A stretch of DNA of 64,000 nt from Scenedesmus sp. PABB004 (GCA_014905635.1 JABVCE010000015.1:310001-374000), one strand, 5' to 3'. Shown: positions 1,392 through 64,000, numbered from the stretch's first letter. The notes: generated by a model from the letters alone, not told the origin. A program made the numbers and translations.

Positions 1392-3806
1392 TCACGCGGC
1401 GCCGCCGCCGCCGACGCCGCCGCCGCCCAGCAGCAGCACGTCCGGGCCGCCGCCGCCGCCGCCGCCCCACGCGGCCGCGAGCACGCCGCCCGCGCCCTCG
1501 GCGCCCGCCGCGCACGCGGGCTCGTCGCCCGCGTCCCGCGGCGGCAGCAGGCCGGCGGTGCACACGAGCAGCTGCGGCCGCGCCGGCGCGCCCACGCACT
1601 CGGCCGCGAGCCGCGCGGCCTGGCGCGGCTCGCCGGGCGCCCAGCGGCGCAGCCGCACGCGCTCGCACACGATGCCCGGCTCGGCCGCCGCCAGCGCGGC
1701 GGCAAAGCCGGCCTCGTACGCGGCGCCGCCGCCGGCGGGGCCCGGCATGACCGCGGTCGCCCGTGCCGCGCCGCGCCACACCGCCACGGCCGCGAGCAGC
1801 GCGGCCGCGGCGCCGGCCGCGGCGAGCGCGCCCGCGCCCGTGCCGCCCGCTCCGCCGAGGCCGCGCGCCGCGGCGGCGGGCGGCGCGGCCGGCGCCGGCA
1901 GCAGCAGCGCCGCGCGGCCGCGGCGCTCGCCGCCCAGCGCGAGCCAGGGCGGCAGCAGCAGCGCGCGCCGCCCCAGCAGCTGCAGCGGTGCGGCGCCCGC
2001 CAGCAGCTCGTCCAGCGCCGCCGCGAGCGCCGCCGCGGGGGCGGGGCAGGCGCCGCCGCCGCCAGCGCCGCCGCCGGGCACGCGCCACGTGCGGCCGGCG
2101 CACGCGACCTCGTGCCACTGCTGCGCCAGCGGCGGCTCCGGCCCCGGGTCTGGCCGCTGCCGCTGCCGCTCCAGCTGCGCCAGCTCCTGCTGCCGCTGCG
2201 CGGCCCCCGCCGGCGCCGGCGCGCGCCCGCCCTGCGCCGCCGCGCCTGCCGCCGCGTGCGCGCCCCCGTTTGCGTGAGGCGCCGCGGCGGCGGCAGCGGC
2301 CTCGCCCGGGGCATACCTGAACACCGCCTGCACCCAGCGGCGCGGCATGCGCACGCGCGTCTTGCGATTCTCAACCACGCGCGCGTGCACCAGGCTCGCC
2401 TCGCACACAAAGCCGGCGGCCGCAAACAGCGCGGCGAGGCCCTCCTGCGGCGCGGCGGCGGCGGCGGCGGCGTGTACGCGTGCACGTGCGCTCCGTCCCT
2501 CGCGCGCCAACGGCACGCCACCTCCCCGCCGCGCCCCCGCCCTGCCCACGCCCCGGGCGCGCCTGGGTGTAGTAGTAGCAGCAGGTGCCGTCGCCGCGCG
2601 CGTAAAAGCCGGGGCTGATGAACCGCGCGCCGCCGCTGTGGCCGTCGAGGCGCGCTTGCGCGAGGTCGCCGGCCGCATAGTCTCGGAACAGCACGCGCCC
2701 GGTGCCGGGCCGCAGCACCGACGCCACGTTGGACAGCGCCTGCCGCGGGCGCGGCGACGCGCGCGGGCGCGGGCGCGGGCGCGGCGGGCGTGCGTGGGCG
2801 TGAGCTGAGGGCGCGGGCGCGGCGCAGGCCGCGGCAGTCAGCGGGCGGGCCCCGGCGCGGCGCGGCGCGGCGCGGCGCGGCGCGGCGCGGCGCGGCGCGG
2901 CGCGGCGCGGCGCGGCGGTCACCGCGGGCATGGCCTCCGGCGCGACGGCCGAGAGCACAAAGACCATGACGGCAAAGTCGACGCGCGTCCCGGGCGGCAG
3001 CAGGCGCGGCAGCGGGTCGCGCGTGACGTCGCACACAAACGCGGCGAGCCGGCCCGCGGCCGCCTGCGCGCCGCCGACGGCGGCGGCGGCGGCGGCGGCG
3101 GCAGCGGCGGGGCGTGGGCGGCCGCGGCGGCGGCGCGGCGGCGGCGCGCCGCCCCGTCCCCCGCGCCGCGCGCCGCGCGCCGCGCGGGGCGCACCGCCGC
3201 GTCGTGCGCCGGGTGCGCGCGCACGATCGCGACCGCGGACGGCGAGAAGTCGCAGGCAAGGACCGCGAGGCGGGGGTTGAGGTCGAGCAGCGGGAACACC
3301 GTGTTGCCCGCGCCGCAGCCGACCTGCGCGGCGGTCGCGCGCGGCGGCGGCGGCGGCGGCCGTGCGCGGACGAGGCGCGCTGTGCGTGGCGCCGCCGTGC
3401 GCGACGATGGCGCCGCGCCGCACCTCGAGCACCGTGAGCTCGCCCTCCGCGAGCTGCGGCCACTCCTTGTCCAGATAGTGCCGGTCGCGGAAGAAGCGGT
3501 CGGCGTTGCGCCTGCAGCGCGACGGCGCGGCGCGGCGATTGAGCGCGCCGCGCTCGAGCTGCCGCCAGGTGCCCCCCGCGGTGGCGCACGGCGCGCCCTC
3601 TGCCCAGCGCCGCACTTGTAGAAGGCCTCCCAGTAGCGCCCCGCCTCGCGCTCGAACTGGGCTGCGCGCGGGCCAGGCAGCAGCGGTGCCGGCCGGCTGA
3701 GCGGCGGCCCCCTGCAGCGCGCGCGCGGCAGCGGCTCCCGGGTCGCACCCGCTAGCTCCGGCGGCACCTCGTCCTCCGGCACGGCGGGCTGGCTGTAGAG
3801 GCGCAT
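1392..3806 (-). CDS. METTL6: METTL2/6 (Trm140)-like tRNA m3C methyltransferase with long C-terminal extension; 7 exons
   Basis: Spliced motifs YWEAFYK/RNADRFFRDRHYL, VLE/VGCGAGNTVFPLL, ACDFS, FVLSAV, VLFRDYAAGDLAQ, FYARGDGTCCYYY and VENRK..RRWVQAVF. Last intron has a GC donor at 2562. Confidence 0.88.
2855..2917. repeat. (CGCGG)n pentanucleotide array in a METTL6 intron
   Basis: About 12 perfect cgcgg units are directly visible. Confidence 0.9.
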
Positions 3807-4047: not shown

Positions 4048-4906
4048 GGCGGCGATCGGCGCTGCAGCCAGCGCTGCTGCGCGCGCGGCGGCTGCGGCGG
4101 CGCGCGGCGCGCGCGCCTCCGCCCAACCTGCGGCGTGACGCAGCCTTGCAGCTCCAGCAGCTCCGACACGTCCGGCAGGCTCGTGACCACGCTCGTGCAC
4201 GGCAGCGCGCCCGGCAGAGAGCGCAGCCAGGCGACCGCCTCCGCCGCGTGCACGGTGCGGGGCGGCGCCGCCGAGTCCATTACCGCTGGTGCTGCAGGCG
4301 CGCCGCTGGGGCGCCGCTGGTGCTGGGCGCCGCCCGCGGCAGCACTGAGCTGGCGGCGGGTTCGCCAGCCGTCGCGGCGGCGGCCGCGGCTCGCCGGTCC
4401 GCCGGGCGGTGTGCGCCGCACCCGCGCGCACGGTGCGCGCGCGCGCGCCGCGACCACCCCGCCTCGCAGGGCCGCGGCCCTGCGCCGCGTCGCGTCAGCG
4501 TTGCGCCGCGCCGCCGGAAGCGCGGCAGCTCACACTCCAACTCACACACCGCCGCCGCGCCTCCCACACCCACGCCGCGGCCAGCACACAGCACACAGCG
4601 CCCCGCCACGACGCGCGCGCGTGCCGGCGGCCCCGCTGCAGAGCAAACCCCATCGCTGCTCGCGGCGCACGTGCATTCGCGCGCCCCCCGCTTGCGCGCC
4701 AGCCCTCCGCGGCACGGCGCGGCCCTCGCCCCTCCGCCGCGCGCCGCCTCGCGGCTCCAGCCCCCTGCCGCGCGCGCCCGGCCAGCCGCGGAGCTGGCGC
4801 CGATGCTCGGCGCGGCGTGCGGCGCGCCCGCCCTCGCCCGGCGCGGCGCGCCCCGGGATGCGAGTCCCCTGAGCGCCCCCTCGGCGCGGCGCGGGGCGCT
4901 GCGGAG
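4048..4906. repeat. Copy 1 of an 859-bp direct duplication (copy 2 at 5959-6817). Carries a truncated methyltransferase exon 1 (ATG 4280, minus) and a truncated thioredoxin 5' end (ATG 4803, plus)
   Basis: Constant offset of 1911 bp; the only mismatch I found is 4146 T vs 6057 G. Confidence 0.93.
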
Positions 4907-4910
4907 GGCC

Positions 4911-6191
4911 TCAGCCTGGCTCGGACGGCGGCTCTGCGACCAGCTGCGGCTGCTCCAGCGGCGGCGGCAGCTCGTGCGGCGAGCCTGGCTGCTCCGGCAG
5001 CGGCTGCTGCTCCTGCTCCGGCAGCTGCTGCTCCTGCTCCGGCGGCTGCTCCGGCGGCTGCTCCGCCCGCCCCGCCTGCGCTGCTCGCCCCTGGCCACGC
5101 CCCGCGCCGCCGCGGCCGCCACGCACGAGCGACACCGCCCCGCCCGGCCCCACGGCCGCGCGCAGCGCGCGCGCGCGCGCCGCGCGCTTTGGGCTCAGCT
5201 CCACGCCGACCGCGGCGAGGCCGCACGCATTGGCGACCGCGAGCACGGTGCCGTGGCCGCAAAAGGGGTCCAGGACCACGCGGCTGCCCGTCGCGCGCGC
5301 CACAAAGCGCACCGCGGCCGCCGCAGCGGCCACGCCCGTCCCGCGCGCCCACGCTGCCTCGCCGGCGGCGGGCAGCACGTCGCTGGGCGGGCTGCACGCC
5401 CCGGGCGCCAGCCGCACGCCGCGCGAGAAGCAGAGCATGTGCTGGAAGCCGGGGCTGCTGAACGTCGGCGTGCCTGCGCGGCGGCGGCGGCATGTGGCAT
5501 GCGTGGCACCGGCGCGCGGCTGCCAGCGAGTCCGCGCGCGCTCTTGGCGCACCTGGCGGCACGCGGCAGACGAGCTTGTGCCACAGCAGCGCGACGCCGG
5601 GCTCCTGCTCCGCCGCGAGCTGCACAAGGAAGCCCTTGTCGATCCAAGCGCCGCCGGCCTTGATGTCTGCGCGGCGGCGCCCGGGCCCGCGCGGCGGCGA
5701 GCAGCGGTCGGCGAGCAGGCGGGCGCGCGCCGCCGTGGCTGGTCCGATCCCCCAGCCACCGACCCCGTCGTACTGCTGGGCACGCACGTGCCGCGAGCTC
5801 GTGCCGCTCGCGCGGGGTCGGCGGCGCGCGCAGCGCCTCCCCCGTGCGCACCGGTCTGCAGAAAGATCGCGACGCCGTCGTCGGGGCAGCGCTGCAGCAC
5901 GAGCCGCGCCGCGGCGATGAACCACGCCCGCCACGTCGCGAGCGCCTGCGGCGGCGGCGGCGGCGATCGGCGCTGCAGCCAGCGCTGCTGCGCGCGCGGC
6001 GGCTGCGGCGGCGCGCGGCGCGCGCGCCTCCGCCCAACCTGCGGCGTGACGCAGCCGTGCAGCTCCAGCAGCTCCGACACGTCCGGCAGGCTCGTGACCA
6101 CGCTCGTGCACGGCAGCGCGCCCGGCAGAGAGCGCAGCCAGGCGACCGCCTCCGCCGCGTGCACGGTGCGGGGCGGCGCCGCCGAGTCCAT
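4911..6191 (-). CDS. Bacterial-type SAM-dependent methyltransferase with beta-class N4/N6 DNA-MTase-like motif order; 4 exons
   Basis: Exons 6191-6039, 5945-5852, 5666-5553, 5473-4911 (GT-AG). N-terminal RTVHAAEAVAWL..SVVTSLPDV, central AIFLQTDIK..WIDKG..LLWHKLVCR, C-terminal SAM motif I VVLDPFCGHGTVLAVAN..AVGVELS. Confidence 0.82.
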   Translation of the reverse strand: MDSAAPPRTVHAAEAVAWLRSLPGALPCTSVVTSLPDVSELLELHGCVTPQVGRRRARRAPPQPPRAQQRWLQRRSPPPPPQALATWRAWFIAAARLVLQRCPDDGVAIFLQTGAHGGGAARAADPARAARARGTCVPSSTTGSVAGGSDQPRRRAPACSPTAARRRAGPGAAAQTSRPAALGSTRASLCSSRRSRSPASRCCGTSSSAACRQVRQERARTRWQPRAGATHATCRRRRAGTPTFSSPGFQHMLCFSRGVRLAPGACSPPSDVLPAAGEAAWARGTGVAAAAAAVRFVARATGSRVVLDPFCGHGTVLAVANACGLAAVGVELSPKRAARARALRAAVGPGGAVSLVRGGRGGAGRGQGRAAQAGRAEQPPEQPPEQEQQLPEQEQQPLPEQPGSPHELPPPLEQPQLVAEPPSEPG

Positions 6192-6817: not shown

Positions 6818-8250
6818 CTCGCGAACGGTCGCCGCGGCGCCGCCCGGCAGCGCGGTGCAGACGCTCTCCGAGGCCCCGCCGAGCCCGGCGGCGGCCCTTG
6901 CGGCCGAGAATGCAGCCAGGTGAGCAGCGGCCGCGCATTTTGGGGCGCCCGCGCGCACGCGGGCCGCGCTCACAACTCCCCGCCCCGCAGGCGCGCGGCG
7001 TACGAGGCGCAGGTCGCGGCTCAGCTGCAGGCGGAGCGCTCCGGCCTGCCCTGGTGAGGCGCGGGGCCGCGGGGCGCGCGCGATGGCGGGGGCGCGCGCG
7101 GCCAGGCTGGCGCCGGCAGCGGCCAGCGCCGGCCTGCGGGCGCCCCGGGCGAGCCGTACGCGCACGATCTGCCGCCTGGCGGCCCGCCGCGGCCCGGGGC
7201 GGCCGGCAGAGGCGGTTGGCCCCAGTCCAGGGCCTGCTGCAGCGATGCTGGCTCGGCGCCCAGATGCCAGGCCTTCCGCTGGCGGGGAGGGCCGGGCCCC
7301 GATCGGGCCCACCCCTCGGCGCGCGCCCGGCGCCGCCGGCGCGGCGGCGCTCACGCTGCGCCGCGCGCGCCGCGCTGGCCGCAGGTGGGAGGTCGACTGC
7401 CCCGCGAACATGGTGAGCGTGGCGAGCCTCGACGAGCTGCAGGCGCGCGTGGAGGGCGAGTGCGCGGCGGGGCGGCTCGTGGTCGTCAACTTCTTCGCCC
7501 CCGAGGTTCGCGCGCGACGCGAGAGGGAGCGCGCGGGGCGGCGACGGCGGCGGGCGAAGCGGCAGCGCCGCCGCTGGGGGCGCAGCGCAGCAGCCGCGCG
7601 CCGCCTCGCCGGCCGCCTCGCCGGCCGCCTCACCCGCCGCCGCCGCCGCCGCCGCGGCGCGCAGTGCTACGCGTGCAAGTCGATGCAGCCCAAGCTGCGC
7701 CAGATCGCGCGCGACAACCCCGCCGCCGTCTTCGTCAAGGTGCGCCCCTGCGCCCCACACGCCCCCGCCCGCCCCCGCGCGCCCGCCCGCCTCGCACGCC
7801 CGCGCCGCGAGCCTCACGCGCGCGCATCGCGCCTCGCGCGCCCCTCGCGCGCCGCCACCTTGCGTCCCGCGTCCGGCGCGCGCCGGCCGCAGGTCAACGG
7901 CCTCGTCGGCGACCTCCAGGCCTACTGCGAGGACATGGGCATCACCAGGATTCCCTTCTTCCACTTTTACAGGCGCGTGCAGAGCAGAGCAGGCCCTGGG
8001 TGTATAGTTTAGGGCATGGATCAGCAGCAGCAGCAGCGGCCAGCCACCGGCGGGCGCGTCGCCGACGCCGCCTGCTGACGCCGCCTGCCGACGCCCGCGC
8101 CCGCGCCCGCGCAGGGCAAACAAGCGCGTCGCCGCGTTCAGCGCCAACATGCGGCCCGAGCGCCTCGCGCTGCTCCGGGCGGAGATCCTCGCACAGACCG
8201 AGGCCGCCGCGGCGACCGCCGCGGCGGCCGCCGGCGCGGCGGCTCGCTAG
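6714..8250 (+). CDS. Plastid atypical thioredoxin (Lilium/ACHT-like), active site ECYAC; 6 exons
   Basis: Transit-peptide-like start; spliced WWEVDCPANMVSVASLDEL..LVVVNFFAPE/CYACKSMQPKLRQIARDNP..FVK/VN..IPFFHFYR. GC donor at 7973; TAG at 8248-8250. Confidence 0.85.
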
Positions 8251-9639: not shown

Positions 9640-12216
9640 ATGGGCAAGCGCTCCGCGGCGCGCGCGCCGCCGGGCCGCAAGAAGCGCTCGCGCGCCACGG
9701 AGGAGGATGAGGCGCACGCGTTCTTCCTGGACGACGACGAGCCCAAGCGGCGGGGCCAGGAGAGCGAGGAGGAGGACCCCGAGCAGCAGGAGACGGCGGA
9801 GCAGAAGCGCGTGCGCCTGGGTGAGCGGCAAGGCCCCCTCCACACCAGCGCGACCGCGTGCCGGCCGCGGCAGCAGCGGCAGCAGCGGCGCGCCGCGCCC
9901 GGCCGCCGCGGGACGGCGGCGGCAGCAGCGGCGCCCGGCCGGCGCCGCAGCGGCGCCGGGCCTGGCGCGCCCGCCAGGGTGCGCAGCCGCGCTGAGCGCG
10001 CGCTGACGCCGCCGGCCGGGGCGCCGCCGCAGCGCGCGACTACCTGGACTCGCTGCGCGCGGGCACCGCCGGCGGCGACGACGAGGGCAGCGACGACGCC
10101 GAGGGCGACGGCGAGCCCGGCGACGTGGCGGCCGCGCGGGGCGCCGGCTACGGCATCGGCCTGGGCGATGAGGAGCTGGCGGAGCGGCTGCGTGAGGAGG
10201 CCCTTGAGGTGCGCGGCCAGGGAGCCAGGGTCGGGCTCGGGGCTGCCGCCGGGCAGTCTGGCACGCAGTTGCAGCGGCGGCAGCCCCCCCCCCCGACCGA
10301 GGCCACGCCGCGCCGCGCCGCGCAGGCCCAGGGCAAGCTGCAGCGCAAGCTGGCGCGCCGCGTGCAGCTGCCGGAGGCGCCGGCCGCGGGCGCGCGCTAC
10401 GGCGGCGGGCGCTTCAAGCGCGGGCACCGCCTCAGCGCGACGGCGCTCGCGCTCGCGCCGGACGAGTCCACGGCCTGGACCGTGAGCAAGGACGGCAGCA
10501 TCCTGCGCTGGGACGTGGAGACGCTGACGAGCACGCCGCTGCTGCGGCCGGGGAGCAAGGCGGCGGCCGCGGCGGCGGCCGCGGCGGGCACCGCGGCGGA
10601 CTGGGTCAAGCGCGGGCCGCGCCAGAACCCCACCAGCAGCCTGCTCGCCGCCGCGGTCAGCAGCGACGGCCGGTACCTGGCGGTCGGCGGCGGCGACAAG
10701 CAGGTGCGCCCGCGTGGGGGCGCGCTGCGCGTGCGCGAGCGAGCGAGCGAGCGTGCGTGTGTGTGGGAGGGGGGGGGCACCTGGGGCCGGCCTGCGCACG
10801 CGCACGTGCTCGCCCCGCGCGCTCGCCGCGAGCCGCCGCCGCCGCCGCCACCGCGCCGCGCAGGTGCATGTGTTTGATGCCGCCGCCGGCGCGCACGTGG
10901 CGTCGTACCCGGGCCACCGCGACCAGGTCGCCGCGCTCGCCTTCCGCCCTGGCACGCACACGCTGTACAGGCGCGCCGCGCCGCCGCGCCGCGCCGCGAG
11001 CCCCCGCGCGCCCCGCGCCCCCACGCCGCGCGGGCGGCGCGCCGAGCCCTCCTGCCGCCGCCGCGCCGCCGCCGCCGTTGCCGTCGCAGCGGCGGCTACG
11101 ACCGCACGGTGAAGATCTGGAGCCTCGATGACGCCGCCTACGTGGACACGCTCTTCGGGCACCAGGCGCGGCCGCGGCCTGGTCGCAGCCAGCCCGCGCG
11201 CAGGGCTCGGCGCGGCCGTGCCGCCCGGCGGCGCGCGCGCGCGTGCTCGCGGGACGGGCGGGCGCCGCGGCGCGCCGACACCCGTGGCGGCCGCCGCCGC
11301 CCCTCCCTCGCAGGGCGAGGTGTTTGCCGTCGACGCGGCGCGCGCGGAGCGCGTGGTCAGCGCGGGGCACGACCACACCTGCAGGCGCGCGGGGCGCGCG
11401 CGCGCGCGCGCGCGGCGCCGCCGCGCGCGGGGCCACGGCGCGCCGGCGGCCCCGCGCCGGCCGGCGCGGCCGACCGCGGCGCCTGCTGCGCGCGTCGCGG
11501 GCGGCAGGGTGTGGAAGATCCCCGAGGAGAGCCACCTCATCTTCCGCAGCCCCTCGATGGCGCAGCACGCGCTCACGTACGTCACCGGCAGCGCGTGGCT
11601 GTCGGGCGGCTGCGACGGCACGCTGCAGGCGCGGCGCGGCGCGCGGCGCGGCGTGCGGGGCGGGGCGGCGCGGCGCGCGCCGCGCATGTTTTTGCGCGGC
11701 CGGCCGGCCGCTGAGCCCTAAACCCTGCGGCCGGCCCCGCCTAAAACCCTGCGCGCCTGCCAGGTGTGGGACACGATGAAAAAGAAACCATCGAGCGTCG
11801 TCCACGGCGCGCACAGCGGCCGCGGCGCCGCCGGCGGCGCGGGCGGCGGCGACGCGGGCGGCGGCGGCGGCAGCGGCGCGCCGCCGAGCGACGGCAGCTG
11901 GGCGACGGCCGGCGTCGACACGCCGGGGTGGGTGCAGAGCGTCGCGGTCGCGCCGAGCAGCGACCTCGCCGCGAGCGGCGCGGGCGACGGCTGGATCCGG
12001 CTCTGGGGCGTGACGCCGAGCAAGCACGGCGGCGCGGGCGGCCTCGCGCCGCTCGGCGCGCTGCCGGCGCCGGGGTACGTCAACGGGCTCGCGCTCGGGC
12101 GCAGCGGGCGGCTCGCGGTCGCGGGGCTCGGGCAGGAGCCGCGGCTCGGGCGCTGGGGCCGCGCGGCGGGCGCGCGCAACGGGCTGCTGGTGCACACCTG
12201 GGCGCTCGGCGAGTGA
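9640..12216 (+). CDS. RRP9: U3 snoRNP WD40 protein Rrp9/U3-55K; 8 exons
   Basis: ETAEQKRVRLA, AVSSDGRYLAVGG, LYSGGYDRTVKIW, YVDTLFGHQ, WKIPEESHLIF, MKKKP and GQEPRLGRW signatures. Four of seven introns need GC donors (10971, 11166, 11385, 11629). Confidence 0.93.
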
Positions 12217-12498: not shown

Positions 12499-15459
12499 AT
12501 GGCGGCCTCTGGCCTGGGCGCGCGCCTGCAGCGCGGCGCCGGGCTCGCGCCGGGCGGCCGGCGCGGCATGGCGCCGTGCGCTAGTGGGCGCCAATGGGCG
12601 CCGCCCAGGCGCGCGGCGGTGCTTGAGGAGCCCGCGCTGGCGCAGCCGTCGGCGCCCGCACCCGCACCCGGCGCGCTGGACGCCAACCAGCGCGTGCGTG
12701 AGGGCGACTTCGAGGCTCCCCTGGTCCAGGAGCAGGTGGGCGCGGCGCGCAGGCGCGGCGTGCCCGCGATTGGCGGCGGCGGCGAGCAGCGCGCGACGGC
12801 GCGCGCGCTGCTGCCGGTGCCACCGCGCGGCGTGCGGGTGCGGCACGCGAGAGCACCCCCGCGAGCTGCCAGCGGCGCCCCACGCCCGTCGCCGCACCGC
12901 GCCGCGCGCCGCCGCCGCCGCCAGGCGTCCAAGCGGGACGAGGCGCAGGGCAGCATCGCGGACGTGCTGCCGCGCCTGCCGCCCGGCGCGCGCGTCGACG
13001 CGCTCGTCGTCGGCTGCGGCCCCGCCGGCATCGCCCTCGCCGCGCAGCTCGCGGGGCGGGGGCTCAGCGTCGGCCTCGTCGGTGCGCCGGCGCGCCCGCC
13101 CCGCCCAGCCCGCGCAGCCCGCCCGCCCGCGCGTCCCGCGCCCCGCCGCCGCCGCGCCGTGCGCGCGCCGACGCGCCCCTCTCCCTCCCCGCACCCGCCG
13201 CGCCCGGCAGGCCCCGACGCGCCGTTTGTGAACAACTACGGCGTCTGGGTCGACGAGTTTGCGGCGCTCGGGCTGGCGCACACACTCGAGCGCAGCTTCG
13301 ACGACGCGCTGTGCTACTTCCAGGAGGGCCGCGAGGTGCGGCCCGATCAGCACGGCAGCGCCGGCAACGCGGCAGCGCCGCCGACAACGCGGCAGCGCCG
13401 CCGGCCCACCGCGCGCGCCTCACACGCGCGCCGCGCCGCGCGCCGCGGTGCGTGCGCGCGCCCCGCAGGTGCGCGTCGGCCGCGCGTATGGCCGCGTCTC
13501 GCGCCGCCTGCTGCGCTCGGCGCTGCTGCAGGACGCCGCGGCGGCGGGCGTGCGCTACATGGCGGCGACGGTGGAGGGCGTGGAGGTGTCCCCCGACGGC
13601 GCGACCGCTGCCGTCGCGTGCAGCGGCGGCGCGACGCTCAGCGCGCGGTGCGGCCGCCCGCCGCCCGCCCGCCGCGCCTCCCTCCCTCCCTCCCTCCCGC
13701 CCTCCCACACGCACACACCCGTCCACCTCCCGCCGCCGCCACACGCGCGCGCGCAGGCTTGTCACGCTCGCGTCGGGCCAGGCCGCGGGGCGGCTGCTCG
13801 CGTACGAGTCCGACGCGCCGGGCGTCGCGGCCCAGACGGCGTATGGCATCGAGGCCGAGGTCGAGGGCTACGCCGAGGCCTACGACCCCAAGCGCATGGT
13901 CTTCATGGACTACCGCCGCCACCACTCGGGCCTCTGGGACGGCGCGGCACGGCACCTCGACGGTGGTGCGGCGCCGCGCCGCGCGGCGCGCCACTGCGCA
14001 GGAGCGGCCGCCGCCGCGCCGGGGACCACGCGCCGCAGCGCCGGGGACGTCGCGTTGAGCCTCACGCCGCCCCGCGCCGCCGCGCGTCGCGCGCAGCCAA
14101 CCACCCCAACGCGGGCGGCGGACTGTGGGGGTCGGGCGAGGAGGTGCCGTCGTTCCTGTACGCGATGCCGCTCGGCGGCAAGCGCGTGTTCCTGGAGGAG
14201 ACCTGCCTAGTTGCCAAGCCGGCGCTGCCCTTTGCCGGTGCGGCGCGGCGGCGGCGGCGCCGCCGCCGCGGCGCGACCACGCGACGCTACGCGACGCCGC
14301 TCACACCGCACGCCCACCGCCGCCGCCGCACGCCCGCCGCTGCCGCCACAACAATAACAACCGCCGCCGCGGCAGTGCTGAAGCGCCGCCTCGAGCGCCG
14401 CCTCGCGGCGATGGGCGTGCGCGTGCTGGGCGTGCACGAGGAGGAGTGGAGCTACATCCCCGTGGGCGGCCCGCTGCCGGTCAACGACCAGCCGCTCACC
14501 GCGTTTGGCGCCGCGGCCAACCTCGTGCACCCCGCCACGGGTGCGCGGCCGGCCGCGCAAGCTGCGCCGGCCTGTGGGACCGCGCCGCGCCGCGCGGCCG
14601 GCCGGCCGCCCACCTGACCGACCCGCTCGCACCGTAGGCTTCAGCGTCTCGCGCAGCCTGCGGCAGGCGCCCGAGTTTGCGGACGCCGCGGCCGCCGCGC
14701 TGTCGGCGCACGGCGCCTCCGGCGTGCTCGCCGTGTCGCGCGCGGTCTGGGGCAAGCTCTGGAGCGCCGAGCGGCGGCAGCAGGCGCGCGCCGCGGCGCG
14801 CGGACGCTCTCGCCCCCCCCCCCCCCCCCCCCGCAGCGCCCCCGCTGCATTGCTCAGCGCGCGCTGGGCCCTCCCCCGACCCCTCAAGCCTCACCCTCAA
14901 ACCGGCGCCCCCGCGCCCCCGCCCTCGCCCTCGCCCGTGCGCCGCCCCGCGCAGGCGGCGTTCCACGTCTTTGGCATGGAGCTGCTGACTCAGCTCGACC
15001 TGTCGTCGACCAACGACTTCTTCAGGACCTTCTTTGCCCTCCCGCCCTTCCTCTGGCGCGGCTTCCTCGGCAGCCAGCTCAGCGCGGCGCAGCTGCTCGG
15101 CTTTGCGCTCGCGACGTTTGCGTACGCGCCGCTGGGCATCAAAGCCAAGCTCGTGTCGCACCTGCTGCAGGGTGCGTTTAGGCGCGAGCGCGCGCGCGCG
15201 GCGCGCCACGCCCCCGTTGACGCACGCGCGAGAGCGGCGCCCGTGCAGCGCCGCCGAGGCTGCTCCGCCCGCCCGGCCGCCCCGCGCGCCGCGCGCAGAC
15301 CCCGCCGGCAGCTACCTGATCCGGCGCTACCTGGCGGCCGCCGACGACAGCAGCGGCAGCAGCGGCAGCAGCGGCAGCAGCGGCAGCAGCGGCAGCAGCG
15401 GCAGCGTGACGGCGGCGGCCAGCGCAGCGGCGGCCGCCGCCGCGGCGGACGGCGCGTGA
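12499..15459 (+). CDS. LCYE: Lycopene epsilon-cyclase; 10 exons
   Basis: FAD motif VVGCGPAG, FVNNYGVWVDEF, FLYAMP, FLEETCL, epsilon-type EEEWSYIPVGG, HPATGFS and FHVFGMELL. GC donor at 14784. Confidence 0.92.
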
Positions 15460-17584: not shown

Positions 17585-20500
17585 TCACTCGCCCTTCTTG
17601 CCCGCGGCGGCGGCGCCGCCGCCGCCGCCGCCGATGCCCAGCACGGCGGACAGCACCGCGCCGAGCCCGCGCGCCTTGAGCGCGAGCGAGGGGCCGTAGA
17701 ACATCGTGGTCAGGCCCACCGCAAACGGCGCGGCCGCGGGGCCGACGGGGTGCTGCCAGAGCGGCGGGATGGTCGTGCGCATGAGCGGCCAGCCGTCCTC
17801 CGCGACGGCCTGCGCGTGCGGCGGCGGCGCGCGGCGGCGGACGAGGGGACGGACGGGCGGATGAGCAGGCGCGAGCACCCCCGGCTGCCGCACGCCCCGC
17901 GGCCGCCGCGCGCTGCGCCGCGCGCCGCGCGCCGCGCCTTTGGCACGCAGAGTGCGCGCAGGCCCTCGACGCCGGCGAAGCGCCCGAAGCCGCTGTCCTT
18001 GACGCCGCCAAAGGGCAGGCCCTGGCACATGTAGGTCGCGTTGAAGTCGTTGATCGACGTCATGCCCGCCTCAAGCTGGCCCGCGATCGCGCGCGCGCTG
18101 CGCGGTCGTGCGGCGGCGGATGCGGCGGCGGCGCGTTGAGGCGCGGCGCGCGGAGTCGCGGAGTCGCAGCGGGCGGGCGGGCGGCGCGGCGCGCGGAGTC
18201 GCGGAGTCGCAGCGGGCGGGCGGGCGGGCGGCGGGCGGAGTCGCGGAGTCGCAGCGGGCGGGCGGGCGGCGGGCGGGAGGGAGCAGGGAGGGGCGGGGGC
18301 GGGCGGCGCGGCGCGCGCACCGGCGCGTGCTGCGGCTGAACACGCTGCTGCCGAGGCCGAAGGGGCAGTCGTTGGCGAGCGACACCGCCTCGGCGTCGGT
18401 GTCAAAGGGAATGACCGTCATGACCTGCGGCGGCGGCGCACGGGGCGTTATAACGCAGTTCAAACGCGCCGCCGCCGTCCGAGGAGAGGGTGCGTCCGCC
18501 CAGCCATCGCGGGCAGCGCGGCGGCCCCGCGGGGCGAGAGGGGCGTCCGGCACCGCCGCGCCCGCGCCCCGCGCCACACGCCCCGCCGCGCGCCGCCCCG
18601 CGCGCCGCGCCGCGCCGCACCGGGCCAAAGGCCTCCTCGTAGTACAGCGACATGCCCTTGGTCACGCCGGTGATAACCGTGGGAGGGTAAAACTGGCCTG
18701 TAGCGGCGGCGCCGCCGCCGCCCGCCGCGGCGGCCGCCGCGCGGCGCGTGTTGCGCGCCGGCGACGGCGGCGGCGCGCCGCCCGGCGTGGCGGCGCCGTT
18801 GGCGCCGCCGCCGGAGTTGGCGGGGCCCGGCGTGCCGCCGGCGTGCAGCGTCGCGCCCTTGGACACGGCGTCGTCGATGAGACGCTGCACCTTCTCCACC
18901 GCGCCCGGCATGCACATCGCGCCCGCGTCCATGGGGCCTGCCGCGCGGAGCGCAGGCGCGCGGGCGCGCGCGGGAGAGGCGTGAGCAGGGGAGGCGGGGC
19001 GCGAGGAGCCGTGCCCGGCGCGCGCCCGGCACCGGCGCCGCGCCGGCGGCGCCCCGGCGCCACGCAAGCGCGCACCCGCGCCGAGCGTCGGCCCCTGGCG
19101 CATGCCGCGCGCGATGGCCGACACGCGCTGCAGGAAGGGCTCATAGACACCGCGCTGCACGATGAAGCGCTCGCCGCTCGCGCAGTTCTGGCCGCAGTTG
19201 AGGAACGCCGCCTTGATCGCGATCGGCACGACCTGCTGGGTGGTGTGTGGCATGGGGGCGGGGCGGGTCAGTGGGTGAGACCGCTGCCTGCTCCCACGGC
19301 GGCGCGGCGCGGGCCCAGGTCGTCTCGGTCGGCGTTGCGGTCGGCGTCGTCGCAGACGACCTCAACCCTCAACCCTGTACCCCCCTCAACCCTGTACCCC
19401 TCAGCCCTGAACCCTGAGCCCTTACGCCCCGCGCCTGGCCGAGGTCTGCGTCGTTGCAGACGATGAACGCGTCCTTGCCGCCCAGCTCGAGCGTGACGGG
19501 CGTGAGGCGCTCCGCCGCGGAGGCCATGACCTTGCGCCCGACCTCGGTGCTGCCCACAAACACGACCTGCGCGGCGCAGAGGGAGTGGCCAGGGGCGGTA
19601 GAGGGTCGGCAGAGCGTTGGCGGGGGCGGCAGAGTCAGCGGGGAGCGGGGGAGCAGAGCGGGCGGCGCGCGGGGGCAGGCACGGCGCGGCGCGCGGGGGC
19701 GGGCGCGGGGCGGCGGCGGCAGCGCCACGCCGCGCCTTGTCGACGCCGCCGGTGACGAGCGCGTGCCCGGCGTCGCCGAGGCCCGTCACGAAGCGCACGA
19801 GCCCCGGCGGCGCGCCGGCGGCGGCGAGCGCGGCGTCGACGATGCGGCGATAATAGGCGATGCTCCAGCTCGCGTGCTCCGAGACCTGCGTCACAGCCAC
19901 CACGTGGCACACGTGCGTGTGGCACACGTGCGCGTGTGTGGGAAAGGGGGGGGGGGGGGGCGGGCGCGGGCGTGGGCGGGCGGGCGTCCAAACGCACGGC
20001 GCCACGCCGGGGCGGGCCGCCACGCTGACCAGCGCGCCGCGCTCGCATCGCGTAAGCCCTCGCCTGAGCCCCCGCCGCACCTTGACCACGATCGCGTCGC
20101 CCGCCATGACCGCGGCGCTGATGGGGTTGACTATGTTGTGGAAGGGCCAGTTCCAGGGCACGATCGCGCCCACGACGCCGACGGGCACCCACTCGACGCG
20201 CGCGCGCTTGTAGAACGCCTGCGGGCGGCGCGGCGCGGGCGAGCGAGGTGTGCAGGGGCGTGGAGGGGCGCGGGCGCGGGGCGCGGCAGCGAGGGCGGGC
20301 GCGGGCGCGGGGCGCGGCAGCGAGGGCGGGCGTGGGCGCGCACCATGACGCCCGCGCCGCGCTCGCACGGGCGCAGCGCGGCCTCGCCGTGGCGCAGCAG
20401 CCAGGTCAGCTTCTCCGCTGTCACCACAATCTCGCCGAGCACCGCCTCCAGCGGCGTCTTGCCCGAGTCGCGCGCCGACACCCTGCGCCGGCGGGGGCGG

Positions 20501-20762
20501 CGCGGCACGCGGCGTCGGACGCGGCGCTGGGCGTCGGGCGCGGCGGGCGCCGGCGTGCGCGGCGGGCGCCGGCGGCTCGGCGCCCCCCGCTTCTGACCCC
20601 CGGCGCGGCCGGCCGCCGCGGGGCGCGCCTGCAGATGTCCTCCTGGTGGGTGATGATGTATTTGAGCAGCACGCGCAGCAGGCGCCGGCGCTGCGCAAAG
20701 GTCGAGTGGCGCCAGACCTTGGCCGCGTCCCGCGCCTCGGCGATGGCCGCACGCACCTGCAC

Positions 20763-20811
<49 letters not shown>

Positions 20812-21278
20812 CGGCGGCGGGCCGCTGAGCTCGCTGCAGGCGCTTCGCGGCGCCGCGCCGCGCCGCGCCTGCCGCTCGCGCCGCGCGCCTCGGCGGGGGT
20901 CATCGCCTTGGCGTGGCCGAGCAGCTGCATCGTGCTGGGATCGTAGCAGGGGATCGACCCCTTGGGCGCGGGCGTGCCGGGCACGTACGTGGGCGCGTCC
21001 AGGGCCTCCGCCGCCTCGTCTGCGGGCGGCGGCGGCGCGGCGACGCGCGGCCATCAGCGCCGGGCGCCCGCCGCCGCGCCGGCGGGGGCGAGCGCTGGGC
21101 GGGCCGACGTCGCACCCGGGGTGAGCGGCACGTCCAGCGTGGGCACGGCGGCGAAGGCCAGCGCGTCCCAGGCGGCGTAGAGGGCGAGCAGCAGCAGCGC
21201 GAGCGCGCCCGCCAGCGCCAGGCCGCCCGGCGGCCAGGCCGCCGGCCCCCAGGACGCCAGCAGCTCGGTCAGCTCCAT
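17585..21278 (-). CDS. ALDH22A1: Aldehyde dehydrogenase family 22 with N-terminal membrane anchor; 12 exons
   Basis: N-terminal TM segment, [46 protein letters not shown], catalytic [15 protein letters not shown] and [21 protein letters not shown]. Five of eleven introns have GC donors. Confidence 0.9.
18148..18270. repeat. Three-copy minisatellite (cggagtcgcggagtcgcagcgggcgggcgg core) in an ALDH22 intron
   Basis: Core is repeated near 18151, 18194 and 18236. Confidence 0.85.
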
Positions 21279-30813: not shown

Positions 30814-31585
30814 TCAGCTCTCCTCCGCCTCGTCCGGCGCGCCGCGCATGTAGAGCACGTTGTTGCATCGGATGAGCACCTCGCCGAGGTGCCCCGTCGA
30901 CTGCCCGTCCACAAACTCCTCCGTGTTGGCCAGCTGTCGCGGCGGCGGCGGGGGCAGCGGCGGCGGCGGGGGCAGCAGCGGCGGCGGCGGCGGCGCGGGG
31001 GCGCGTTGAGATGCCACGCCGCGGCGCGGCGCCGGCGGCGCGCGCGCGCGGCAGCTGCTGCTGCCCGCCGCCGGCGCTGCCTGGTCGGCTGCTCGCCGCG
31101 CGCCCCTTGCGCGTGCGCCGCTGCTGCTGGCCGCGCCTGGAGGTTCATGTATGCGTCCACGCTGACGAGGTAGCCCTTGTACTCCATGCCCCACTTGAGC
31201 TTCACGACCACGGTCTTGCCGGTCAGCTCGTTGAGGAAGGGCTTGGGGTTGACCGGCACGGCCTGGAGCGCGCGGCGCGCGAGCGGCGCCGCGGCGCGGG
31301 GTGGGCGCGGCGCGCTGCTGCGCTGCTGCGCTGTCGCAGCCGCTGCTGCTGCTGCTGCTGATGCCACCGCTGGCATTCTCCTCGAACGCCGCTGCCGCGG
31401 CCAAGAGCTGCTGCGCCCGGCAGCCCGCCGCCCGGCAGCCCGCCGCCGCCCGCCGCTGCTGCTGCTGCTCGCCCGCCGGCGCCGCGCGCGCGAGCCGCGC
31501 CGGCCCGGCGGCCTTGCCCCGGCGCGGCCGCGGCCCCGGCCACCCGCAGGGCGCCCGGCGCGGCCCAGCGGCTCACCGCGGCCAT
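30814..31585 (-). CDS. SNRPF: Small nuclear ribonucleoprotein F; 3 exons
   Basis: [73 protein letters not shown]. Intron 2 has a GC donor at 31136. Confidence 0.96.
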
Positions 31586-35100: not shown

Positions 35101-37459
35101 GGCGCAGGCAGAGGTGCTCGCGCGGCTGCGCCGCCTCGACTGGCCGGCGCTCGCGCACCACGTGCTGCTGGGCCAGGCCTGGCTCGTGCAGGTGCGCCCG
35201 GCGGCGCGCTGCCGCGCGGGCCGCACGCCGCGCGCCGGCCGCGGCCGTCCGACGCTCGCGCGCGGCGCCCGTCTCTGCCCGCCGCCGCGGCCCGCCGCAG
35301 GTGCAGGCGCACCAGTGGGTGCGCAACGGGGACGACCTGATCAGCGCCCTCAAGATATACTACGGGGTGCGCCGCCGCGCCCGCCCTGGCGCCGCCGCGC
35401 CCGCCCTGGCGCCGCACGCCGCCGCCGCACGCCGCCGCCGCGCGCGCGCCGCTCAATGTGCCGTCGCCGCCGCCGCCACCGCGCCACCGCCGGCACCGCT
35501 GCTGTCCCCACAGAGCGGCGAGTACCTGCTGGCGCCCGACCTGCTGCTGCTGGAGTGCTGGCTGGCCGCCACGCCGCCGGCGGACGGCGCGGGCGCGCTG
35601 CTCACGGCGCTGGGCGGGCTGCCGCTGCTGCACGCCGCGGGCCTCGCGGGCGCGGGGCTGCCCGCGCCGCCGCCCGGCGCGCTGCTGTCCGCGCTGGGCG
35701 ACCAGGGCACGCGCGCCGGGCTCGAGGCGGGCCTGCGCCTCCTCGTCGTGCTGCTGCGCGACCGCACGACGGGGGGCGAGCCGATTCGCCAGCGCTGCCG
35801 CGTGCTGCTGGTGCACTGCCTCGCCGTGGCCGACTGGACCTACACGCAGCTCTTGGAGCAGCTGCCCTCCGACCTGCAGGCGCGGCGGCGCGCCGCACAT
35901 GAAGCTGGCAGCGCCGGCGCGCCCCGGCCGCCGCCACGCCGCCGCCCGCGGCGCGGCCGCCGCGCGCCGCGACGCCCCGGCCGCCGCCCGCCGCGCCGCG
36001 CCGCGCTGCGCCGCGCGTCGCGCAGACCCAGCCGGCCCTGGTGGAGGAGGTGCTGGCGGAGCTTGCTGTCTTCCGGCAGCCCCGCCTCGGCGCCGCGGGA
36101 GCATACTGCCTCAAGTGCGGCCTCCGCCGCGCCGCGCCGCTCGCCGCTCGCCGCTCGCCGCCGGCGCCGCCGCGCCGCCGACGGCCCGCGCCGCCGACGG
36201 CCCGCGCCGCCGACGCCCCGCGCGCCCCGCGCGCCCCGCGCGCCCCGCGCGCAGGCGCGAGCACTGGCGCACCTGGGACCCCCACTTTGCGCTGTATTCC
36301 AGGCCCGCGCTGCAGCGCGCGCTCGCGCGCGCGGCAGACCTGGCGGAGCACCAGCCGTCGTGGCAGCTCGACCCGCCGCGCCACGCGCTGCCGCCGCTGC
36401 TCGCGCCGCTCGCGGCGCTGCCGGCGGCGCCCTGGTCGCTCGCGCTCGTGCGGTACGTGCTCGCCAGCGCGGCGGCGGGCGAGCCGTGGGGCCTGCCGGC
36501 CGCGGCGGCGGCGGCGGCGGAGGGCGCGGCGGCCGCGGCGCTCTCGGCGGCGCGCGCGCCGGACGCGGGCGCGGCGGACGGCGCCGAGGCGAGCGACGCG
36601 GCGGAGGCGGCCGAGGCCGCCGAGGCGGAGGCGCTCGGCGCAGCGGTGGCGGCGGCGCTCGCGGCGGCCGCGGCGCGCGGCGGCGGCGGCCCCGCGCTCG
36701 CCGCGGCGGCCGCGCCCACCGCGGCGGCCGACGTCGCGGCGCTGCTGCGCCGCGTGAGCAGTGGGCGCCGGCGGCGCCGCTCGAGCCTGCCGAGCCAGGG
36801 CTGCCAGGTCACCGAGGACATGACCCTGTCGGCGCTCAACCTGCTGAGCCTGGGCCTCGCGCACCTCGCGCAGCGCCTCGCCGCGCAGCGGCCGCCGGGC
36901 GCGGCGGCCACCCCGGCGGCCACCCCGGCGCTCGAGTGTGTCGGGCAGGCGGAGGCACAGGAGCTAGAGGAGCTGCTGGGCGGCGCCGGCGGCGGCGCCG
37001 ACGCGGGCGCAGGCAGCAGCGCCGGCGCCAGCAGTGGCGCGCCGCCGGGCATCGTGCCGTCGCTGGTGGCGCTGTCGCGCAGCCGCAGCACGCCTGGCAT
37101 GGAGCAGGGCCAGCCCGCGGCGGCGGCGGCGGCCGCGGCGGCGGGGCCGCCGGCGCCGGCGCTGAGCGACGACGTCGTCGCGTGCGCGCGCGCGCTGCTG
37201 CCGCAGGCGCAGGCGGCGCTGCGCGGTGTCCGCGGCGTGCTGCGCCCGCAGGAGGCGCACGCGGACGGCGCCGGCGAGGCGGCGGCGGGCACGGACGACC
37301 GCAAGGCCGCGGCGCGCTCGCGGCAGGAGGCGGCGCTCGCGCGCATGCGGGCGCAGCAGGCGGCGTTCATGGAGACCGCCGCGCGCATGGACATCGACAC
37401 CGACAGCGACAGCTGCGACGACGACGACGGCCTCGGCGCCCCCCAGCAGGCGGGCGGCG

Positions 37460-48596: not shown

Positions 48597-48969
48597 CGTT
48601 GCCGCCGCCGCCGCCCCGCCGGCCGACGCGCGGGCCGAGCGCACGTCGAGCGGGAGCGGGACGCACGCGCGTGCACGCGGGGTCGGCGGACGCGAGGGCG
48701 CGCGGCCTGCGAGCGCAGGGCGGGGGCTGCTGCCGGCAGCGGCGGCGCGCGTGTGGTCGGCGGCGCGCGGCGGCGGCTGCCACGAGGGTGCTGCTCTGCG
48801 CACGGAGGCGGACGAGGTCTGGCGAGGCGCCAGCGGGTGCGGCGGCGACAACAGCGCAGCAGGAATGCAGCGGTTAAGTTGGAGAGTGACTGCGCCGCGC
48901 CCTGCCCTGCCGCGCCCCGCCGCGCGGCGTCCGGCCGCCGCCCCGGCCACCGCCGCCGCCGCTGGGCCG

Positions 48970-60088
<11,119 letters not shown>

Positions 60089-61019: not shown

Positions 61020-64000
61020 TCAGGGGCGCGCCGGCGGCGCCGCGGCGCCGCTGCCATCGGTCGACCACGCCGCATCGCGCAGCAGCTCAAAGGGGCTGCG
61101 TGCCGCGGGCGGCGCCGCGGCGGCGCCCCCGGGTGCCGCGGGGCTGCTGCCCGCCCCTGCCGCGGCGCCCAGCTCCCGCTGCGCCTCGTCGCCCGGCGCG
61201 CCGGCGCGCAGGACGCCGCGCACGCGCGCGCCGCCGCCGTCGCCGCCGCCGCCGTGGCCGCGCCGCGTGCGCTCCCGCCCGCGGCGGGCGGCTGCAGCCC
61301 CAGCACCGCGGCGACCGCGGCCACCGCGCCGCGCCGCGGCACGGCGGGCGCGCCCGCCTCAGCGGGCCACGGCAGCCCGGGGCTGCCTGCGCGGGGCGGC
61401 CTGAGCGCGGAACGCAGCCCCCCGCTGCCCGCGCGGACCGGCCTGCCAGCGCTGCTGGCGCGCGAGCAGTCGCTGCCCTCCGCCTCCTCCTCGCGGGGCG
61501 TCTTGAAACTGACGGTCCGCCCCGCCCCGCGCGGCGTGGAGGGCCCCAGTGCGGCGGCCGCCGCCGCGGCGCCCAGCGCCGGCCGGAGCTCCGGCGGCGC
61601 CGCAAACGCCGGCGCGGGCGCGGGGTCGCGCTGCCGCTGCGGCGCGGCCAGCGCCGCCGCGAGGCGCGCCTGGCGCGCCTGCTCCTGCGCCTGCAGCTCC
61701 TCCAGCGCCGCGCACACCTCGGCAAACGTCGGCCTGCCGCGGCGGCGGGGGCGGCTCGCGCGACACGGCGCGGCAGCGCACGCCGCAGCTGGCGGTGGCG
61801 CCTGCGCGGCGCGCCCGGCCCGCACCTGTCCTGGGGCTCGTGCGCCCAGCAGGCCTCGGCGAGCTGTCGGTAGCTGATCGGCGGCCGCAGCTCCTGCCCG
61901 GGCGCGAGCCCCGCGGCCGCCACGGCCGCCGCCGCGACCGCCGCCGCGAGCGCGAGGCCGCGCCCGCCCTCCGGCCACTCGGGCCGCGCCCGGTCGCGCA
62001 CGACGGCGGCGCCGAGCATCGCCTTGGGCACGTCTGGCGGCCGGGCGAGCGCCGCGCAGCGCGGGCGCGGGCAGCGCGTGGGGCGTCCATCGCACTCCAC
62101 CAGGCCACCACGCCGCGTGCGCGCGCGCGCCGCCCCGGCGCCGCCGCGCACCCGCGAACGCGCGCAGGCCGGTGGCCAGCTCATACAGCAGGATGCCAAA
62201 CGCATACACCTGGGGCGGTCAGGGATTTGGGTGTTGTGGTTCAGGGTATTAGGGGGCTCGAGGGCAGCGCGCGGCGGGCGAGGCCAGCGGCCGAGGCGCG
62301 GCGCGGCGCGGCGCGGCGCGGGCTGCACGCGGGCCGCCGCGGGCGCGAGAGAGGCAGGCAGCTCACGTCGCTCGCGCGGCTCGCGCGGCCGTGGAGGAGC
62401 AGCTCGGGCGCCATGTGAGAGAGTGTGCCCCTGTGCACGCCGCTGACGTGCGTGTCGGCGTCGTCGAGGCGCACCGCCAGGCCAAAGTCGGCGACCTTGG
62501 CGACCAGCTCCTCGCGCATCCCCGCCACTGCGTGGCCGGCGGCGCAGTGCGCGCCCGCCCCGGGCGCCGGCATCATCAGCTCCTGCTTCAGGAGCACGTT
62601 GGCGGCCTTGAGGTCGCCGTGCAGCACGCCTGAGGGCCAGCGGCGGGCGCGGCGGGCGCTCGGCGCGCGGCCGGCGGGCCCCGCTCGCGCCGCGGGCGAG
62701 CGCCGGCGGCGGCGGCGGCGGCGGGGCATGGCACGGCGCGGCACAGCGCGACGGCGGCGCGCTCGCCTTCGCTGTGCAGGTGGTGCACCGCGCGCGCGAC
62801 GCCGAGCGCGAGGCCGAGGCAGGTGCCGTGGTGCACCGTCCCGCTCACGCGGTCGTCCAGCAGCCGGCCGTCGATCGCGGCGCGCAGCGAGCCCTGCGGG
62901 CGCGCCGGCAACGCGGCCGCGCGTGGGCCCGGCAGCTAATCAAGGCCGCCCGGGCGCGCGCGGGGTCGCGCGGCGGCCGTCGCCACGCGCCCCGTCGGCC
63001 TCCCTGAGCCCCCCGCCCCGGCGCACCAGGGGGCAGAACTCCATCACGAGCTGCACCTCCCAGCCGGTGACGGGAAGCCCGGTGCCGCTGCCGCTGCCCC
63101 GGCGGTCGCCGAGCGCGCCGCCGCCGCCGCCGCCGCCGCAGCTGCCGCTGCCGCCGCTGCCGTCGCTGCCGCACAGCGTGCCGGCGCCGGCGCCGGCGCT
63201 GGGGCTGGGCGGGGCGGGCGGGCCGAGGGGGCGCAGCAGGTAGGTGTAGACCTGCGCGGCGCCGCGCCAGAGGCGTGTGTGCGTGTGCGTGTGTGCGTGG
63301 GCGCACGAGCGGGGGCGCGCGGCGCGGCGCGGCGCCCGCCCAGGCCCCAAGCCCCGAACCCCGACACGCCTGCACGATGTTGGGGTGGCTGAGGCTCGCC
63401 GCGAGCGCCGTCTCCATCACGGCCATGCGCTCGCGCCGGCTGCTGCCGCGCCGCTCCGCGCCGCCGCTCCCGCCGCCGGCGCCGCCGTTCGCGGGCAGCG
63501 TGACCACCTTGACTGCAGCGGGGATGCCCCGCCAGGTCGCCCTCCATACGATGCCGAACGCACCCGAGCCGACCACCTCGTGCAGCTGCAGGCCCGAGGC
63601 CGCCGCGGCCGCGGCGGCGCCCGCGGCGCTGGAGCCGGGCGACGACGGCGTGCGCTGCAGCCAGCGGGGGCTGCCGCCCGGCCGGCCCGTCGCTGCCACG
63701 GCCGCCTCCTCCTCGTCGCCCTCCTCCTCGCCCTCCTCCGCCAGCTGGCGCAGGCCCGACGACAGCCGCCGCGGCGCGCCCGCCGGCGACGCGGACAGCC
63801 GCGACACCGGCGGCGGCGAGCGGGTGCTGAGGCAGGACAGCGGGCGGGGGCTGCTGCCGGCGCTTGCGTGCGCCGCGCCCGGTGCCGGCCCCGCGCGGCT
63901 GCCCGCCAGGCGCCGGGCGAGCATGTCGGCGCTCACGGCGCTGATGGCCAGGGACAGCCGCTGCGCCGGGCACGCCTCCGCCGCGGCCGGCGCCGCCGGC
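61020..64000 (-). CDS. TKL/Raf-like protein kinase; 5' part lies outside the window and the 3' end is uncertain (61020 or 60752)
   Basis: VGSGAFGIVW, AAVK, LSHPNIVQ, LVMEFC, HGDLKAANVLL, KVADFGL, GTLSHMAPE, SD/VYAFGILLYEL and CWAHEPQDR/PTF. GC donors at 63369 and 62766. Confidence 0.92.

Follow-up and report, generated by a model that had tools for sequence, protein, structure and literature searches.

Introns that start with GC instead of GT and end with AG make up roughly one fifth of the introns in a 64-kb stretch of the Scenedesmus sp. PABB004 genome (JABVCE010000015.1:310001-374000; the window, meaning the whole 64,000 nt analysed), as judged from homology and gene prediction. These very probably are ordinary U2-type GC-AG introns that reach an unusually high frequency through compensation under GC pressure. 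The source of the window evidently is a chlorophycean member of the Scenedesmaceae with a genome of ~78-80% GC. The GC content of the window itself ranges from 0.74 to 0.83 per 4-kb bin and is ~0.80 overall, with short exons densely packed. For the Scenedesmus sp. PABB004 genome, a size of 39.8 Mb, 78.5% GC and 7,092 genes have been reported (PMC12571836).

A first-pass annotation of this DNA had proposed 21 GC donors, all fitting the motif AG/GCGNG (the slash marks the exon border). The coordinates were re-read and all 21 carry this motif, 11 on the plus strand and 10 on the minus strand (2562, 17937, 19434, 19735, 20628, 20888, 31136, 49812, 62766 and 63369); each of the 21 introns has AG at its 3' end. 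However, both strands of the window together contain 150 copies of AGGCGNG, and the motif by itself thus proves nothing. Junctions were placed with a splice-aware dynamic-programming protein-to-DNA aligner, which charges GT and GC donors an equal penalty, demands an AG acceptor and was given full-length homologues as queries. By spliced alignment, 14 of the 21 sites fall exactly at exon ends, in the genes for CDC48, ALDH22, RRP9 and lycopene cyclase. As the aligner yields false GC donors where conservation is low, only introns stable across homologues were counted, leaving a verified set of 47 introns (33 GT, 14 GC) in these four genes. At the termini of RRP9, lycopene cyclase and ALDH22, which are not conserved, GC 'introns' vary from homologue to homologue and were left uncounted, and the conserved regions of the four genes yielded no GC donor beyond these 14.

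When the aligner was restricted to GT donors, scores dropped by 237 for CDC48, by 278 and 276 for ALDH22 and by 191 and 138 for RRP9, and the resulting models had extra gaps, also within conserved motifs. In-frame GT alternatives exist 6-9 nt away from the donors at 10971, 19434 and 58036. At the 14 aligned sites, the GT alternatives would insert or remove residues in a way that no homologue supports, and they lack the usual G at -1 and at +3. Judged by homology, the GC donors are real.

The CDC48 gene yields a complete spliced product of 823 residues (2,472 coding bases) and contributes four of the GC-AG introns:

50713..60085, plus strand: CDC48 coding region, 21 exons and 20 introns (16 GT, 4 GC) by spliced alignment
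51003..51080, plus strand: CDC48 intron 2, GC-AG, AAG/GCGCGC, phase 0, VLLK/GKK; alignment to P0003 and other CDC48 homologues
52591..52957, plus strand: CDC48 intron 6, GC-AG, GAG/GCGCGG, phase 0, IFCE/GEP; spliced alignment and GT-only test
53934..54417, plus strand: CDC48 intron 9, GC-AG, CAG/GCGCGG, phase 0, DKTQ/GEV; spliced alignment and GT-only test
58036..58492, plus strand: CDC48 intron 17, GC-AG, CAG/GCGCGT, phase 2, ATNR/PDI; spliced alignment and GT-only test

These four junctions had been called unambiguous in the first-pass annotation, and spliced alignment indeed placed the GC donor at each of them. Under a GT-only model, conserved residues are lost at intron 2, and at 58036 the GT located 6 nt downstream would put two extra residues into an invariant motif. 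A further GC donor, which the aligner had set at 50748 in the first intron, was replaced by GA/GTGCGT at 50757 after comparison of the N-terminus. The proteins closest to CDC48 are from Tetradesmus obliquus and, as transcriptome sequences, from Enallax costatus and Flechtneria rotunda. Positions 44001-59600 were also compared with a DNA metagenome, X1 (0.05 of sampled words), which returned 346 pieces, mostly short GC-rich matches diverging from the window. One X1 contig (53776-53950) crosses the donor at 53934 with no listed difference there, but one of its five differences is unlisted. Two CDC48 introns also contain simple repeats: intron 6 holds a (CGCA)50 array at 52761-52956, and the last intron a perfect (GT)73 microsatellite at 59654-59800, in which dozens of GT dinucleotides go unused as donors.

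Five GC-AG introns are found in ALDH22, with the same donors in all four homologues aligned:

17588..21278, minus strand: ALDH22 coding region, 12 exons and 11 introns (6 GT, 5 GC) by spliced alignment
20757..20888, minus strand: ALDH22 intron 2, GC-AG, GAG/GCGCGC, phase 0; orthologous intron GT in L010 and L007
20483..20628, minus strand: ALDH22 intron 3, GC-AG, CAG/GCGCGC, phase 2; orthologous intron GT in L010, L007 and L016
19567..19735, minus strand: ALDH22 intron 6, GC-AG, AAG/GCGCGG, phase 0; spliced alignment and GT-only test
19233..19434, minus strand: ALDH22 intron 7, GC-AG, CAG/GCGCGG, phase 0; orthologous intron GT in L010 and L016
17810..17937, minus strand: ALDH22 intron 11, GC-AG, AAG/GCGCGG, phase 0; acceptor agreed by 3 of 4 homologues

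The homologue that departs at intron 11, P0130, takes a different acceptor in its divergent tail. At intron 7, an in-frame GTAAGG lies 9 nt deeper, the use of which would add three residues found in no homologue. A search with one ALDH exon retrieved ALDH22A1 of Scenedesmus sp. PABB004 at 100% identity. This deposited protein (P0122) agrees with the product spliced from the window at every aligned residue (643 of 643), and its sequence presupposes all five GC donors. The concern that gene finders would mis-annotate such donors therefore does not hold for ALDH22. As to the other genes, no PABB004 protein appeared among the matches to a CDC48 exon and an RRP9 exon or among the top-match clusters, which is weak evidence on how these genes were annotated; CDC48 and RRP9 may be missing or modelled otherwise in the deposited annotation with its 7,092 listed genes.

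The first-pass annotation had also suggested comparing orthologous intron positions in relatives of lower GC content, and ALDH22 permits this comparison. The ALDH22 protein was run against metagenome DNA, yielding 16 loci from one scan, six of which were aligned with GC donors allowed at equal cost. Three of the relatives are rich in introns, namely L010 (54.5% GC), L007 (55%) and L016 (63.5%), and in these all 28 aligned ALDH22 introns have GT donors and none has GC. Introns at amino acid 98 (phase 0), 141 (phase 2) and 327 (phase 0) match the window donors 20888, 20628 and 19434 in position and phase, and each has GT in every one of the three loci that shares the intron. GT at three orthologous introns of lower-GC relatives suggests that T was changed to C at +2 in the GC-rich lineage; with three relatives and an unrooted comparison, the data point to this direction. 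A different fate is seen in loci L001-L003 of the metagenome, which carry an ALDH22 homologue. The aligned one, L001, has 77% GC, is identical at 390 of 637 aligned residues and retains a single convincing intron, with a GT donor at amino acid 55. This very GC-rich alga thus seems to have lost nearly all of its ALDH22 introns instead of converting their donors.

Four of the seven consistent introns of RRP9 and one of the nine consistent introns of the lycopene cyclase gene have GC donors:

10971..11089, plus strand: RRP9 GC-AG intron, CAG/GCGCGC, phase 2; 5 of 5 homologues, GT-only test
11166..11313, plus strand: RRP9 GC-AG intron, CAG/GCGCGG, phase 0; 5 of 5 homologues, GT-only test
11385..11507, plus strand: RRP9 GC-AG intron, CAG/GCGCGC, phase 2; 5 of 5 homologues, GT-only test
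11629..11763, plus strand: RRP9 GC-AG intron, CAG/GCGCGG, phase 0; 4 of 5 homologues (P0145 aligns otherwise), GT-only test
14784..14954, plus strand: lycopene cyclase GC-AG intron, CAG/GCGCGC, phase 0; 4 of 4 representatives

The 3' end of another lycopene cyclase intron, 14541-14637, reads TAG in place of the usual CAG; C occupies acceptor position -3 in 46 of the 47 verified introns.

The verified donors reveal what sets the GC class apart (positions are counted from the exon border). Among all 47, G is present at -1 in 46, at +3 in 47 and at +5 in 46, and C at +4 in 42, while position +2 is occupied by T in 33 donors and by C in the other 14. The 14 GC donors have +3G, +4C and +5G without exception. 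They correspond to the consensus of the GT donors of this species, (A/N)G/GTGCG, save for the C at +2. A at -2, by contrast, precedes all 14 GC donors and 15 of the 33 GT donors (Fisher p = 2.5e-4), so that 14 of the 29 verified donors that follow AG are GC, whereas none of the 18 verified donors without -2A is. Of the strict AG/GCGNG rule formulated in the first-pass annotation, the exonic A thus stands as a mark of GC donors, whereas the GCGNG part is common to nearly all donors. Only -2A discriminates GC from GT donors, and it is at this position that GC donors match their own GT consensus more strongly than the average GT donor does.

The two classes also differ in phase. Among the verified introns, phases 0, 1 and 2 are represented by 10, 0 and 4 GC donors versus 17, 11 and 5 GT donors. 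The filtered GT donors of the gene prediction described below carry -2A in 28 of 34 cases in phase 0, 2 of 18 in phase 1 and 5 of 16 in phase 2. In phase 1 the -2 position is a third codon position, which is nearly always G or C here, and introns of this phase would consequently seldom qualify for a GC donor. Codon bias would in this way restrict where GC donors can occur.

To estimate the frequency of GC donors across the window, we trained an exon-intron parser on the four verified genes (minimum exon 30 nt); it merges neighbouring genes, and its totals are therefore rough. In leave-one-gene-out runs it recovered 29 of the 33 GT introns and all 14 GC introns, with two false calls of each kind. 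It predicts all 21 proposed sites, including the seven outside its training set. After filtering by signal scores, coding scores and strand-consistent regions, 93 introns (68 GT and 25 GC) remained in the window, the latter comprising 20 of the proposed sites and five others. Two of these five, at 12799 and 13942, are false by homology. The further candidates at 29662 (plus strand), 37517 (plus strand) and 42796 (minus strand) may either be spurious or depart from the AG rule: 29662 and 37517 lack -2A, and 42796 amounts to a 57-nt in-frame stretch. The parser thus puts the GC-donor share of the window at ~20-23%, or an estimated ~21 of 90-105 introns, which agrees with the one fifth (21 of ~112) counted by hand in the first pass. 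Within the verified set the share is 30% (14 of 47; 95% confidence interval 17-45%), and at a rate of 1.2% the chance of drawing at least 14 GC donors among 47 would be 3e-16. In the window, GC donors thus account for at least 10% of introns alongside the high GC content.

The seven sites outside the four verified genes are the following:

30934..31136, minus strand: SmF GC-AG intron, CAG/GCGCGG, phase 0, MNLQ/LAN; Pfam LSM positions 1-35 and 36-64 on either side of the junction, and parser
49618..49812, minus strand: GC-AG intron of a thioredoxin-domain gene, AAG/GCGCGC, phase 0, VAK/VDG; Pfam Thioredoxin positions 30-55 and 56-92 (E 4.5e-4 and 0.013), and parser
35880..36025, plus strand: probable GC-AG intron of a UBR-box (PRT6-like) E3 ligase gene, CAG/GCGCGG, phase 0; parser
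2445..2562, minus strand: probable GC-AG intron of a METTL6-like methyltransferase gene, CAG/GCGCGC, phase 0; parser
7973..8114, plus strand: probable GC-AG intron of an unnamed gene, CAG/GCGCGT, phase 2; parser, with positive coding scores on both sides
62630..62766, minus strand: probable GC-AG intron of a protein kinase gene, AAG/GCGAGC, phase 1; parser
63252..63369, minus strand: second probable GC-AG intron of the same kinase gene, CAG/GCGTGT, phase 0; parser

In SmF, the LSM positions continue exactly from the upstream into the downstream exon, as befits the clear junction MNLQ/LAN claimed in the first pass. The five introns at 35880, 2562, 7973, 62766 and 63369 are probably of the GC-AG type as well. 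At 35880, the Pfam family UBR1-like_wing shows weak continuity (positions 4-28 and 34-58, E 0.4 and 0.1). At 2562, the homology of the upstream exon to human METTL6 chains reaches residue 58 of 59, and a PDB search with the downstream exon gave a chance match only. A Pfam scan of the exons flanking 7973 returned no family match. In the kinase gene, the exon upstream of 63369 stops at Pkinase position 62 and the exon downstream of 62766 begins at position 120 and includes the catalytic-loop motif; the donor score of 63369 (3.0) is the weakest among the 21 sites.

These observations fit a scenario in which strong GC-biased substitution would convert T at +2 to C, and the C would survive only where A at -2 adds a base pair with U1 small nuclear RNA (snRNA) that replaces the pair lost at +2. 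The number of U1 positions paired would then be the same for AG/GCGCG as for NG/GUGCG. The U1 5' end entered here is the one we presume, not one taken from the PABB004 genome. That GC pressure is the driver, as the first-pass annotation had proposed, is plausible in view of the 78.5% GC of the genome and of the GT found at three ALDH22 introns in relatives of 54-64% GC.

The first pass had gone further and postulated a relaxed or retuned recognition of 5' splice sites. Changes in U1 or U6 snRNA or in the proofreading of 5' splice sites would then have made position +2 nearly free in this lineage. The rate is indeed very high for a green alga, GC is used by almost half of the verified donors that follow AG (14 of 29), and the C at +4 of 42 of the 47 donors would be a mismatch to the U1 sequence that we presume. 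Yet a free +2 would not confine GC to donors with -2A, as compensation does, and no GC donor occurs among the 18 verified donors without it; moreover, +2 is still mostly T in a genome of ~80% GC. The pattern shows no sign of retuning and equals the standard compensation of U2-type GC-AG introns as described elsewhere (PMC1557818). We therefore regard a retuned machinery as unlikely.

It is still less probable, to the point of being a slim chance, that some junctions are mis-called, the true donor being a nearby GT or the presumed intron being coding, and this would affect at most the five partly tested sites. The abundance of AGGCGNG in the window, the false GC calls of aligner and parser in weakly conserved DNA, the in-frame GT 6-9 nt from 10971, 19434 and 58036 and the less than full homology support at five sites would be in keeping with such errors. 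What speaks against them are the GT alternatives at the 14 aligned sites, which alter residues in a way seen in no homologue and miss the -1G and +3G present in 46 and 47 of the 47 donors, respectively, and the exact profile continuity in SmF and the thioredoxin-domain gene. An error of consensus or assembly at +2, or editing of this C to U in the pre-mRNA, can practically be dismissed: despite the one unlisted difference in the X1 contig over donor 53934, it would take 21 like errors at the same motif position, all after AG, with 33 verified GT donors left intact, and GC-AG introns are spliced in other organisms without editing (PMC1557818).

Several points nevertheless weigh against ordinary GC-AG introns at high frequency as the explanation. 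The evidence for the junctions is homology, in part to proteins that were deduced from transcripts in other genera (Enallax costatus, Flechtneria rotunda), and the 47-intron sample leans to genes with proposed sites. False GC donors were produced by the aligner in poorly conserved stretches, namely at 50748 in CDC48 and several times in the termini of RRP9 and lycopene cyclase, and twice by the parser beside its 14 true ones. Support is partial or ab initio for five of the 21 sites. If real, the candidate at 29662 (ACG/GCGCGCG) would break the AG rule, although it resembles the two known false calls. Finally, an Rfam scan of the window returned no match, and the window contains no U1 gene on which the suggested U1 pairing could be based.

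Compared with known systems, the introns of the window most resemble the U2-type GC-AG introns of animals and plants, with which they share the GC start and AG end, an otherwise regular GT-AG consensus, a stronger match at the remaining positions (here -2A) and switching from GT to GC between relatives. GC-AG introns account for 0.4-0.9% of introns in five model species, and outside +2 their donors fit the consensus better, 'apparently compensating' for the mismatch there (PMC1557818); in plant genomes, 98.7% of introns on average are GT-AG (PMC6310983). The share of less than 1% in those organisms contrasts with the 20-30% in the window. Compensation is visible here at one position only, because +3, +4 and +5 are near-invariant in all donors. 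U12-type GC-AG introns, which have a GCATCC donor (PMC1557818), have the termini in common with those described here. However, the box GCATCC(T) is present in none of the 21 donors, which read GCGCG, GCGAG or GCGTG, and without ATCC the introns are not of the U12 type.

The haptophyte Emiliania huxleyi likewise is a GC-rich alga with abundant GC donors that keeps the AG acceptor, and the shift has again been ascribed to genome GC (65%): 56% of 241 curated junctions are GC-AG, and reverse transcription PCR (RT-PCR) confirmed 13 junctions, nine of them GC (PMC4028052). It belongs to another supergroup and reaches a GC majority at 65% GC, whereas GT remains in the majority here at 78.5%; its junctions have RT-PCR support, those of the window homology. 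Similar in share are the pelagophytes Aureococcus anophagefferens and Pelagomonas calceolata, with ~14-17% predicted GC-AG introns as opposed to 0.32% in a pelagophyte of lower GC, a difference for which GC content has been blamed (bioRxiv 10.1101/2024.10.30.620910). In contrast to the window, whose genes have up to 20 introns, these stramenopiles have few introns per gene. The statement of the first pass that GC donors stay at about 1% in most eukaryotes and are common mainly in haptophytes and dinoflagellates consequently needs amendment, as pelagophytes must be added; that the window lies far above ~1% (3e-16, see above) is upheld.

The mechanism is thus not new, given that the same trend has been published for a haptophyte and pelagophytes and that the deposited annotation already has GC donors in at least one gene. 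What the window contributes is a chlorophyte example from the upper end of the GC range, along with a tidy -2A rule. In the literature covered, no share of GC-AG introns was found for this alga or for the order Sphaeropleales, although the species-level supplements of PMC6310983 might contain algal figures, and the terms 'GC-AG', 'splice' and 'intron' do not occur in the comparative paper that lists this genome (PMC12571836). In practical terms, gene models in very GC-rich algae hinge on permitting GC donors, as GT-only models break conserved proteins at 14 of the 47 junctions in the four verified genes. Moreover, the requirement for -2A, together with GT in lower-GC relatives, constitutes a simple natural test of the U1 pairing that a donor needs, and the case illustrates how pressure on base composition remodels splice signals. 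Tentatively, and with the odds rather against it, one may go further and propose that this alga has the highest GC-AG share in green plants and algae, 20-30% genome-wide, with C at +2 only after exonic AG as a near-absolute rule or, in the boldest version, a shifted 5' splice-site code in which T and C at +2 are near-equivalent given -2A. If true, the genome would represent a natural titration of U1 pairing with 5' splice sites under extreme GC pressure.

The gene content of the window was surveyed by Pfam scans, which served for gene naming only. They covered 495 of 507 six-frame stop-to-stop open reading frames of at least 60 amino acids, the other 12 being located at 19638-21053 within ALDH22. 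The genes named were those for a CBM20 protein, a METTL-like methyltransferase, a WD40 protein (RRP9), lycopene cyclase, a RING protein, an aldehyde dehydrogenase, SmF, a UBR-box ligase, a SUZ protein, COQ9, CDC48 and a kinase. A region of ~9 kb (21500-30400) has long open frames and predicted plus-strand exons, and the scans of its open reading frames gave no Pfam match at E <= 0.001. At 4048-4347 and 5959-6258 (spacing 1911 nt), a 300-nt sequence is repeated exactly in direct orientation, in or beside minus-strand methyltransferase-like genes, and the parser reports identical donor contexts at 4127 and 6038. This suggests either a recent tandem duplication or a duplication in the assembly.

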